Notes: a model not told the origin generated them from the letters alone. Positions 9,176 through 52,100 are shown, numbered from the stretch's first letter. The stretch: 64,000 bases of DNA from Candidatus Omnitrophota bacterium (GCA_028715785.1 JAQURC010000002.1:8402-72401); one strand, 5' to 3'. Program-made: numbers and translations.

Positions 9176-9233
9176 TTGACAAGCCCGCGTTTTTATTATA
9201 AACTTCTTTACTTTCACGATTATCTGGTAAAAT
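9176..9233 (+). promoter_or_regulatory. candidate sigma70-type promoter region for the tRNA-Thr/rpmG/tRNA-Trp/secE/nusG unit (TTGACA at 9176-9181; TATAAA and TAAAAT -10 candidates)
   Basis: Hexamer matches only; spacings suboptimal. Confidence 0.25.
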
Positions 9234-9342
9234 AGCACGTTTAATTTAATTTTATTATTACCAAAGAAAGAGTTTTGGATAATTTCTTGGGGTGTAGATT
9301 TTTTTTATTTATTGGCTTGCACGACTTGGCGAATCCATTTCT

Positions 9343-9415
9343 GCTGGAGTAGCTCAGTTGGCAGAGCACGTCCTTGGTAAGGACGGGGTCACGAGTTCAA
9401 TTCTCGTCTCCAGCT
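9343..9415 (+). tRNA. tRNA-Thr (anticodon GGT)
   Basis: Cloverleaf: acceptor GCTGGAG/CTCCAGC, D-arm AGCTCAGTTGG, anticodon loop TTGGTAA, T-arm GGTTCAATTCC. Confidence 0.85.
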
Positions 9416-9427
9416 TACTAAAAAAAT

Positions 9428-9577
9428 ATGCGTGAAACAATAACTTTAGAATGTACGGTTTGTAAAAATAGAAATTACACGACGTCAAAGAACAAAAAGT
9501 TGCATCAAGATAGGCTGGAGCTTAATAAGTTCTGCAACTGTTGTCATAAGCATACCCCGCATAAAGAGATTAAATAA
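9428..9577 (+). CDS. rpmG: 50S ribosomal protein L33 (zinc-ribbon C+ form)
   Basis: 49-aa [52 protein letters not shown] (below ORF-track cutoff); between tRNA-Thr and tRNA-Trp upstream of secE. Confidence 0.85.
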
Positions 9578-9581
9578 TATT

Positions 9582-9652
9582 AGGGGCGTCGGTTAATGGC
9601 AAACCAACGGTCTCCAAAACCGTGACTGCAGGTTCAAGTCCTGCCGCTCCTG
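9582..9652 (+). tRNA. tRNA-Trp (anticodon CCA)
   Basis: AGGGGCG acceptor, anticodon loop CTCCAAA, T-arm GGTTCAAGTCC; canonical position upstream of secE. Confidence 0.85.
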
Positions 9653-9810
9653 CAAAATTAGGACTTGAACCTAAAGGGGTGTGGGGGAAAATTCCCCCAC
9701 GTTTTCGGGGTAACAGCGAACGAAGTGAGCGCCATAGGGGCAGAGCCCCTTTGGGGAGCGATACGCCGAAGGCGTAGAGCGACAGGTTCTAGTCCTGCCG
9801 CTCCTGTAGT
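9653..9810 (+). ncRNA. structured secE-leader region: inverted copy of tRNA-Trp T-arm (9660-9672), two GC hairpins (GGGGGAAAATTCCCCC; GGGGCAGAGCCCC) and a direct repeat of the tRNA-Trp 3' end (CAGGTTCTAGTCCTGCCGCTCCTG, 9783-9806); tRNA-like remnant
   Basis: Read directly; 23/24 identity to tRNA-Trp 3' end. Confidence 0.45.
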
Positions 9811-9839
9811 CTATGGTTGAAAGGGAAGCGTAAAAATTT

Positions 9840-10031
9840 ATGAATATTTTAGCAAAACCGGTAAATTTTTTAAAGGAAGTCAGGAGCGAATTAAGCAAGG
9901 TTGCCTGGTCTACCAAAAGAGAGCTGCTTGCTTCTACGGTTTTGGTAATTACGGTTACGGTGATTATGACGGCTTTTATCGGGATAGTTGATCTGGGTTT
10001 ATCCAGGTTCCTAAGCGTGGTCTTTAAATGA
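9840..10031 (+). CDS. secE: preprotein translocase subunit SecE
   Basis: 63 aa, single C-terminal TM helix; immediately upstream of nusG with 4-nt overlap. Confidence 0.85.
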   Translation: MNILAKPVNFLKEVRSELSKVAWSTKRELLASTVLVITVTVIMTAFIGIVDLGLSRFLSVVFK

Positions 10032-10555
10032 AGAACTGGTACGTTGTGCATACGCAAACCGGGATTGAAGAAAAAGTAAAAGCATCTTTAGAGAAGAAGG
10101 TGGCCTCCGAAGGTTTGCAAGAGTTAATTTCTAGCGTTGTTATTCCTACCGAGCAGGTCTCGGAGGTGCGCGCGGGAAAGAAGAAGATTACGCAGAGAAA
10201 GTTTTTCCCGGGATATTTATTAGTGGAAATGGATCTAAGCGAACAGACCTACCTTTTTGTTAAGAATTCTCCCGGAGTAACGGGGTTTATCGGATTGGGC
10301 AGGAAACCCGTGCCGCTGCCTCAAGAAGAGGTGGACAATATCCTTAAGCGCACCAAGGAAACCGCGGCCAAGCCGTCCCCTAAAATAGTTTTTGAGAAAG
10401 GCGAACAGGTCAGGGTTAACGAAGGCCCGTTCCTGAATTTTAACGGCACAATCGAAGAAGTTTATCCTGAAAAAGGAAAGGTGAAAGTGAGCGTTTCTAT
10501 TTTTGGCCGCTCTACGCCGGTGGAGTTGGAATACTGGCAGGTGGAGAAAGTTTAA
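10028..10555 (+). CDS. nusG: transcription termination/antitermination factor NusG
   Basis: NGN domain (WYVVHTQTG), KOW domain; secE-nusG-rplK synteny. Confidence 0.9.
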
Positions 10556-51854: not shown

Positions 51855-51867
51855 AATTAGACAATTT

Positions 51868-52100
51868 GGTAAACTTATAGGTTAAGGGAAATCCGTAAAT
51901 ACGGATGCGGTCCCGCCGCTGTAAGGGCAGACGAAAACTGCATAAGTCACTGTCTTTAGTGTTAAAGACGGGAAGACGCAGTAAGTAGGTTAGAAGCCCA
52001 AGCCAGAAGACCTGCCTATATAAAGAATGGTAATGCCTCGTGGAATGGGTTAAGAAATATTTGGGTGCAACCCGTCAGCAACTGTGGCGGGTTTTTTGTT
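51868..52100 (+). promoter_or_regulatory. cobalamin (B12) riboswitch with intrinsic-terminator expression platform
   Basis: AAGGGAA, CCCGCCGCTGTAAG, GTCACTG (B12 box), GGGAAG, GACCTGCC conserved blocks; terminator ACCCGTCA-GCAACTG-TGGCGGGT + TTTTTTGTTT at 52069-52100. Confidence 0.6.

Follow-up and report, generated by a model that had tools for sequence, protein, structure and literature searches.

A structured insert ending in a duplicate of the tRNA-Trp 3' end upstream of secE-nusG in a Candidatus Omnitrophota genome

Described systems that resemble the insert

Tyrosine-integrase islands and prophages that integrate into tRNA genes duplicate their att sites (Williams 2002, as cited in PMC9897764), and the published partial-tRNA duplications flank elements of 9-121 kb (PMC9897764). 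In these att duplications, the repeated tRNA portion has its start within the T-arm or ahead of it and runs to the last nucleotide of the tRNA, with an intact upstream tRNA and a downstream copy that is followed by the ancestral flank, and the same is seen in the inserts described here, which are referred to as type A. Unlike the integrase islands, the type A interior is 110-190 nt long and non-coding, and consists of a conserved structured RNA found behind at least 17 different tRNAs; it is also preceded by an inverted tRNA-derived strand, and has neither an integrase nor a phage or plasmid counterpart.

Another set of comparable elements is formed by the MITE, REP/BIME, ERIC, Correia and CIME repeats, which are short, non-coding, multi-copy, transcribed, structured and non-autonomous. 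Like these repeats, type A is situated within or between operons, is patchy among relatives, has inverted repeats as its bounds and can be folded as RNA. Its bounding repeats, however, are copied from the neighbouring tRNA and are locus-specific, its duplications are 18-31 nt or longer as opposed to 2-10 bp, its orientation is strict with respect to transcription, and about 45 unpaired bases are invariant. A classical MITE was rejected because each locus has its own inverted repeat, taken from the tRNA, and because the duplication, of 18, 24-26, 30-31 nt or longer, is tied to tRNA landmarks.

The omega RNAs of TnpB and IscB are found on IS200/IS605 elements, which make no target duplication and whose ORF-less derivatives are known as PATEs. 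These are like type A in having a scaffold of about 100-150 nt followed by a segment that matches the neighbouring target DNA, and in the existence of ORF-less copies. Type A differs in that there is a target duplication, no conserved left-boundary motif and no tnpB or tnpA gene seen, and in that its matching segment, at 18-31 nt, ends at the tRNA terminus. One further example is provided by RNAs from tRNA operon spacers, such as the E. coli 3'ETS-leuZ sponge, which are single-locus, unstructured trailers. As with 3'ETS-leuZ, type A would be a non-coding RNA in a transcribed tRNA trailer or spacer, whose ends would be set by tRNA processing, as opposed to which it has a conserved multi-copy core and tRNA-derived repeats.

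When the window (the whole 64,000-nt stretch of DNA analysed) and 13 other type A copies were searched against Rfam 15 at permissive thresholds, only tRNAs and a distant cobalamin riboswitch reached threshold, and no ribozyme family was matched. A cobalamin riboswitch aptamer is situated at 51862-52033 (+) of the window (Rfam RF00174, 88 bits). Weak similarity to RF02937 (Clostridiales-2) extends over AAAGGGGUG, a hairpin and CG(U)UUU, with the rest of the type A core unaligned; the score of 20-24 bits, reached by the window and by 4 of the 13 other copies, is far below the threshold of 58.6, and type A is not a member. A likeness to RNase P RNA seen by eye (CCAUAGGG.CAG and GGUAAC) was set aside, as the order of the motifs is reversed and there is no Rfam match. 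A retron non-coding RNA was likewise rejected, since what lies downstream is secE and nusG here and tRNAs, rho or other genes elsewhere, with no reverse transcriptase gene, and for group I and group II introns, integron attC sites, CAST homing guides and bridge RNAs the defining gene or geometry is absent. No description of the type A family or of its layout was found in Rfam 15 or in the searchable literature, which yields just the kb-scale integrase cases. Type A appears to be a widespread and strongly conserved structured RNA family that is new to Rfam, accompanied by at least two sister layouts, in the largely uncultivated Omnitrophota.

The insert between tRNA-Trp and secE

In the window, whose top NusG matches carry the name Candidatus Omnitrophota, the gene order on the + strand is pdxA, ksgA, tRNA-Thr, rpmG, tRNA-Trp, the insert, secE, nusG, rplK, rplA, rplJ and rplL (ORF list; Pfam). 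The tRNA-Trp (CCA) at 9582..9652 is intact (ARAGORN; 59.3 bits with the Rfam tRNA model), and its last 24 nt (9629-9652, copy 1) are repeated 154 nt downstream at 9783..9806 (copy 2), where 23/24 positions of the T-arm, the acceptor 3' strand and the discriminator are the same. An earlier note on this DNA had pointed out this direct repeat, as well as an inverted copy of the T-arm, and both are borne out. The sole difference between the two copies lies in the T-loop (TTCAAGT vs TTCTAGT), and the T-loop of copy 2 has a U at the purine-57 position. The inverted copy follows a locus-specific spacer, CAAAATT (9653..9659), of a kind that varies among loci, and occupies 9660..9672 (AGGACTTGAACCT); this 5' anti-T strand is complementary at 13/13 positions to 9630-9642 in the tRNA, and at 12/13, with a central mismatch, to 9784-9796 in copy 2. 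The chance level for the direct repeat is given by 65 related tRNA-Trp-secE spacers that have no insert, in which the best tRNA-tail match is 10-16/24, and by the background of 20-mer tail matches within 450 nt, which peaks at 10-12/20 (323 tRNAs of the loci compared); the repeat in the window is far beyond chance.

Between the anti-T strand and copy 2 lies a conserved structured core (9673..9783, +), which was delimited by alignments, RNAalifold, a covariance model termed R1 and pair counts. After AAA, it is made up of P2, a long hairpin rich in G-U pairs (9676-9706), GGGGUAACAG (9707-9716), which begins 54 nt from the end of tRNA-Trp, the variable hairpin P3 (9717-9731), the hairpin P4 (9732-9754), GGAGCGA (9755-9761), a second variable hairpin, P5 (9762-9776), and GAGCGAC (9777-9783). 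Three GC hairpins are present between the repeats (9680-9701, 9732-9754 and 9764-9774). The insert has a GC content of 57%, as opposed to 45% for the window, and no credible ORF is found in the 130 nt between the repeats. Past copy 2, the ancestral tRNA-Trp-secE spacer (9807..9839), which holds the secE ribosome-binding region and is like the 'empty' spacers of the related loci L001, L003 and L006, leads to secE (9840..10031; ORF list; Pfam SecE), the cistron downstream of the element, whose stop overlaps the start of nusG (10028-10555; ORF list; Pfam NusG). Since a scan of 9200-10100 found no promoter-like or terminator-like sites on the + strand, tRNA-Thr, rpmG, tRNA-Trp, the element and secE-nusG are probably co-transcribed. 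Neither a transposase nor an integrase gene is found in the roughly 2 kb before and 3 kb after the insert (ORF list, Pfam).

The tRNA-Trp-nusG junction was compared across 80 species-level genomes, in 76 of which tRNA-Trp was detectable. The distance from tRNA-Trp to nusG is usually about 200-240 nt, as opposed to 374 nt in the window, and in L001, L003, L005 and L006, where NusG is 91-94% identical, tRNA-Trp and secE are just 23-49 nt apart. Since these close relatives have short spacers, and since the window sequence past copy 2 resembles those of L001, L003 and L006, about 154 nt (9653-9806) were gained in the window or lost in those relatives. The comparison with related spacers, which the earlier note had proposed in search of an integrated element, identifies an insertion relative to close relatives. 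SecE itself carries an N-terminal extension of 20-25 residues in L002, L007, L011, L015 and L020, where it is 81-88 aa long vs 63 aa in the window.

In 11 of the 76 genomes, the spacer holds an insert with a repeat of the genome's own tRNA-Trp tail after it, the tail differing between clades, and the inserts at this site are of three unrelated types, namely type A (the window, L039 and L045), type B (L049, L050, L068 and L079) and type C (L004, L007, L008 and L025). Type A aligns well across genomes with a NusG identity of 66-70%, with compensatory changes in a hairpin. Among the 80 NusG loci no type A copies were found other than those in the window, L039 and L045, and the 64-kb window holds no second type A copy (self-BLAST, covariance-model search). 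Types B and C share a layout in which a 5' strand is complementary to a tRNA-tail copy at the 3' end, and their cores are unrelated; type B, which is also found behind the tRNA-Ser of L117, ends in GAGGGCGCC and then the 3' half of the T-loop, and type C pairs GAGCGGC with the copied acceptor strand. In L009 (2767-2815), the 5' part of a type C insert (GAGCGGCGTA..) is present on its own, with no tail copy, and this spacer is apparently a deletion derivative of type C. In L011, L024, L041 and L054, an inverted T-arm strand follows the tRNA with no insert, and we read these strands as solo remnants. The strand in L054 (611-640) is a perfect 22-nt reverse complement of its own tRNA-Trp 3' end, situated after TTT, and could be either a snap-back-like inverted duplication or a solo remnant.

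Extent, fold and tRNA-derived copies of the type A family

The insert in the window is one member of a large family in which a structured RNA and a duplicate of the tRNA tail are found together. Metagenomes were searched with a pattern taken from the type A core, GGGGTRACAG..GCCAWAGGGGC..GCCCCTWTGGGG, which matches at least 120 loci; as the pattern fixes the sequence of P4, the family-wide counts describe that subset of loci. Among the matches listed, 85 loci have a same-strand upstream tRNA (ARAGORN) that ends 47-152 nt before the pattern, and the 24-nt tail copy after the core matches at 24/24 positions in 30 loci, at 23/24 in 18, and at 17/24 or more in 79 of the 85. The tRNAs concerned, again among the matches listed, carry 17 anticodons and represent 11 amino-acid types (Met, Lys, Trp, Arg, Thr, Ala, Phe, Gln, Asn, Val and Pro), the core is always oriented with the tRNA strand, and core sequences cluster by tRNA (72 vs 16 nearest neighbours). 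Over all loci compared, 96 of 323 tRNAs have a tRNA-tail repeat within 450 nt, and in a few tail-repeat loci, behind tRNA-Gly, tRNA-Ser and tRNA-Arg, the core is divergent or different. No matches to type A were found in viral contigs, GenBank phages or PLSDB plasmids.

Type A units also occur in tandem. Four arrays consist of two units each (tail copy, spacer, anti-strand, core) and end in an extra tail copy (L125:1007-1620, L170:10653-11087, L198:1815-2100 and L086:2580-2920); the second unit of L125 has a 50-nt replacement within P2. An exception to the layout is seen at L081:879-994 and L111:8536-8651, where the core found between tRNA-Leu and tRNA-Gly lacks both the GAGCGAC end and a copy of the tail of the upstream tRNA. 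Core copies are also present in two high-GC contigs (L152:2393-2493 and L156:1433-1631), the latter with two cores in tandem after the end of an rpmF-like ORF. These two contigs suggest that the family may reach beyond the lineage of the window, possibly into another phylum, taxonomy having been checked for a minority of the metagenome loci.

The order of parts in a unit is the tRNA, a locus-specific spacer, the 5' anti-strand, AAAGGGG, P2, CGYUUUC-GGGGUAACAG, P3, P4 (CGCCAUAGGGGC-loop-GCCCCUUUGGGG), AGCGA, P5, GAGCGAC and the tail copy, and the type A consensus reads AAAGGGG-P2-CGYUUUC-GGGGURACAG-P3-CGCCAWAGGGGC..GCCCCUWUGGGG-AGCGA-P5-GAGCGAC. The window segment 9673-9783 aligns end to end with 66 other copies, and model R1 gives it 120 bits, with the window sequence in the seed, and gives independent copies 55-128 bits. 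The fold was tested with RNAalifold and with a covariance-model alignment of 106 copies, the test covering the helices other than P4, whose sequence is fixed by the search pattern. Paired cells amount to 97.8%, as opposed to 42-68% when the partners are slid, double changes occur at 13 pairs vs 4.3 in shuffles, and 10 of the 12 pairs of P2 covary. Four positions of P2 have G-U as their most frequent pair (56-83 of 95 distinct sequences); as these G-U pairs would be A-C mismatches on the other strand, the fold belongs to an RNA from the tRNA (+) strand. About 45 bases of the core are unpaired and invariant. CGA...GAGCG, which may be a K-turn-like or tandem G-A motif, flanks each of the two variable hairpins, P3 and P5. 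Variants of P3 are shared by copies behind different tRNAs (for instance CCCGCCAAGUUUUGUGGCGGG, CGAACGAAGUGAGCG and GCGAAUGAAAUGAGCG; alignment columns 55-85), which hints at exchange between copies or at genome-specific variants.

For the copied tail, the anti-strand and the flanks, the figures given here apply to loci among the matches listed, which are pattern-selected. The start of the copy is set by a tRNA landmark, in that the copy is 24-26 nt long when it starts at the T-stem and 30-31 nt when it starts at the variable loop (Met, Thr, Val and some Phe), and it is 18 nt long where a hairpin is inserted in the copied T-loop. In L045 (2727-2780), L091, L106, L130, L135 and L180, the duplicated T-loop TTCTAG is followed by an extra hairpin of 10-20 nt, and in copies of this kind the 5' strand reads GAGAAC, which restores pairing. 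Whatever part of the tRNA is copied, the anti-strand can pair with the 6-13 nt at the start of the copy, with a mean run of 6.95 nt vs 4.23 nt when tRNA types are mismatched. It is mainly in the T-loop that the copy departs from its tRNA, by way of substitutions, 1-nt insertions and whole inserted hairpins. Where the gene lacks CCA, none is found after the copy, which rules out mature tRNA as its source. In the tRNA-Phe loci L126, L133, L157 and L125, the spacer holds a copy of the tRNA 5' acceptor strand (GCCGAGG).

Where tRNAs of the same anticodon differ, the copy matches its own tRNA in 3761 vs 83 comparisons, a count that is inflated by small shifts of the ARAGORN ends; a clean example is provided by the window, with CCGCTCCTG, vs L045, with CCAGGCCTG. 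In most loci the identity of the repeat stops at the tRNA 3' end. Over the 20 nt after each copy, measured without gaps, flank identity is at the control level in 46 of 71 loci, intermediate in about 14 of the 71 and near-complete (19-20/20) in 9 of the 71, and in 28 of the 46 with control-level flanks the repeat is still 23-24/24. Since the copy tracks the local tRNA and stays identical despite diverged flanks, it is maintained, by selection or by gene conversion, and the results together point to an older, often longer duplication of which the tRNA-derived part alone has been kept identical. Whether this maintained, locus-matched tail serves as an RNA-level partner, a homology arm or a guide is a testable question.

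Nine loci among the matches listed have the core without a tRNA or a repeat. In these stand-alone copies, a hairpin, GGTTCTTTCG..CGAAAGAACC, precedes AAAGGGG, a ribosome-binding site and gene start follow 3-10 nt after GCGAC, and the left boundaries have no common motif. The genes that follow are rho (three loci) and those for an SDR, an AcrB-family pump, an ORF6N protein and others. To judge from the order of their parts, the tRNA-linked copies may be circular permutations of the stand-alone form, with the partner of the anti-strand placed after the core and not before it.

Explanations for the layout

The reading we favour, with belief and doubt about evenly balanced, is that the element is a co-transcribed structured domain, which the duplicate tail closes without trapping the tRNA, and which heads the secE-nusG message in the window. 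In this reading, the element would be transcribed together with tRNA-Thr, rpmG and tRNA-Trp upstream and secE-nusG downstream, and its fold would depend on a helix that pairs the 5' anti-strand with a T-arm-like sequence, a part that the local upstream hairpin would play in stand-alone copies. Behind a tRNA, the sole upstream partner would be the T-arm of the tRNA itself, at the cost of unfolding the tRNA. For the unprocessed precursor, the predicted minimum-energy structure has the anti-strand paired with the true T-arm (13 bp) and the cloverleaf broken. Competition of the inverted strand with tRNA-Trp folding, which the earlier note had suggested, is consistent with that predicted fold, and an inverted strand that is able to unfold a tRNA raises the question of competition with tRNA maturation. 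The downstream duplicate would offer a second partner, such that the tRNA matures and the rest closes on itself (9660-9672 with 9784-9796). When the 186-nt tRNA-secE spacer is folded (z = -4.1 vs shuffles), this same helix closes the whole insert in the minimum-energy structure, the first 13 nt of copy 2 being its 3' half. The closed, G-rich, multi-helix domain would then form the 5' end of the secE-nusG message and act as a putative insulator that separates the tRNA from the cistron after it in processing and stability. As the element is in the leader of secE-nusG in the window and of rho in other loci, it may affect the expression of core transcription and secretion genes. The most likely origin would be duplicative insertion or tandem duplication, with later loss by recombination between the repeats, which would explain the patchy presence, the tandem arrays and the 'solo' anti-T remnants.

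Several observations speak against this favoured reading. The anti-T strand of the window fits the real tRNA (13/13) better than it fits copy 2 (12/13). Conservation of copy 2 is highest over its final 18 nt or so, outside the closing helix; as the helix leaves these unused, the second partner leaves the retention of the acceptor strand unexplained. In the tRNA-Phe loci L126, L133, L157 and L125, intrinsic-terminator-like hairpins of different sequence are found after both the tRNA and the downstream copy, and a terminator-like hairpin between tRNA and element argues against obligatory co-transcription. Lastly, that at least two unrelated cores (types B and C) have the same layout points to a general DNA-level insertion and not to the need of one RNA.

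This last point belongs to the main rival, a purely selfish reading, which is possible though on the unlikely side. Here the insert would be a small mobile DNA of MITE- or CIME-like kind, inserted, with duplication of the tail, by an enzyme encoded elsewhere or by homologous recombination via the tRNA arms, and the RNA fold would serve the element or be tolerated, without a host function. Presence or absence among species with NusG 90-94% identical, and different insert types at one site, are as such mobility would produce, as are the use of at least 17 tRNA targets and of non-tRNA sites, the tandem arrays and solo remnants, the three unrelated cores in one layout and the GC content of the insert (57% vs 45%). 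The repeat, moreover, ends at the tRNA end, where conservation between species also ends. On the other side, the surrounding stretch (about 2 kb upstream and 3 kb downstream) lacks a transposase or integrase, no such gene recurs beside copies, and repeats of 18-31 nt or more match no known transposase. The orientation always equals that of transcription, selection on the RNA can be read from the G-U-rich stems and from some 45 unpaired bases that do not vary, and the clustering of cores by tRNA (72 vs 16) is expected of old orthologous insertions.

A more specific proposal, and a doubtful one, is that type A stands for a new class of tRNA-keyed RNA elements, in which the 5' antisense and 3' sense tRNA segments are address labels, either for insertion or copying beside the matching tRNA gene or for the release of a possibly circular structured RNA. 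If so, types B and C would represent other families with the tRNA-keyed strategy, and on circular release the hairpin would be re-formed across the junction of the unit-length RNA. Improbable, in turn, is a guide-like or self-processing RNA, in which the core would be a scaffold and the tRNA-derived segments would direct a protein or RNA to the matching tRNA gene or transcript, or from which tRNA-3'-end processing, acting on both copies, would free an RNA of unit length that may be circular. A scaffold that leads into a locus-matched segment at its 3' side recalls TnpB omega RNAs and the guides of Cas12; the anti-strand begins exactly at the beginning of the copy, the layout is of 1.5 units with tandem arrays, and tRNA-linked and stand-alone forms appear related by circular permutation. 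Genes for an associated nuclease, transposase or reverse transcriptase were not seen, however, elements of the IS200/IS605 type make no target duplication, the missing CCA speaks against a copy made from mature tRNA, and no ribozyme family is matched.

The earlier note had taken the stretch from GGAGCG to CCGCTCC for an acceptor-plus-T-arm mimic, and had proposed a tRNA-like RNA in the secE-nusG leader that would engage RNase P, RNase Z or the CCA-adding enzyme, which is now very improbable. Part of this stands, in that GGAGCG (9755-9760), or GAGCG, can pair with CGCTCC (9799-9804; CGCUCC in the RNA) beside an intact copy of the T-stem, and some further support comes from the few tRNA-Phe and tRNA-Met copies that carry a copy of the 5' acceptor strand, and from the maintenance of the copied tail together with its discriminator and, where the gene encodes it, the CCA. 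The mini-structure, however, is not conserved as a tRNA-like one. The search for a pseudogene with ARAGORN and the Rfam tRNA model found no second tRNA or pseudo-tRNA in 9654-9810, and complementarity to the copied acceptor strand shows no excess across the family (4.98 vs 4.81 nt in controls; 61 loci, among the matches listed). Since GGGGAGCGA is conserved behind every tRNA type, and is kept even in L045, where the acceptor strand is CCAGGCC (alignment), the proposed 'acceptor stem' GGAGCG/CGCUCC is a coincidence. The copied T-loops, with their frequent substitutions, 1-nt insertions and inserted hairpins, also speak against a tRNA mimic.

The other proposal of the earlier note, a decayed scar whose attL and attR were left after an integrase-borne island or prophage in tRNA-Trp had lost its interior, is exceedingly improbable: a direct repeat ending where the tRNA ends is the classic mark of an integrase (PMC9897764) and the sequence past copy 2 is the ancestral flank, but the interior is a complete, conserved, ORF-less structured unit of about 110 nt, found behind at least 17 anticodons, each with its own duplicate, the neighbours are pdxA, ksgA, rpmG, secE, nusG and rplKAJL, and viral contigs, phages and plasmids hold no match that could be a free attP form. 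The breadth of targets also speaks against such a scar, since an integrase family is not known to use more than one tRNA. Duplication of a tRNA tail is therefore not always an integrase footprint, and pipelines for island finding or tRNA annotation that make use of partial tRNA repeats would misread such loci. One minor observation on the tRNAs themselves is a T-loop, GGTCCGAA, with a C at the normally invariant U55, which is found in tRNA-Met, tRNA-Val and tRNA-Phe of L082, L086, L124, L126, L133, L145, L197 and others; in an example at L108:1172-1245 and elsewhere, the downstream copies share the U55 change.
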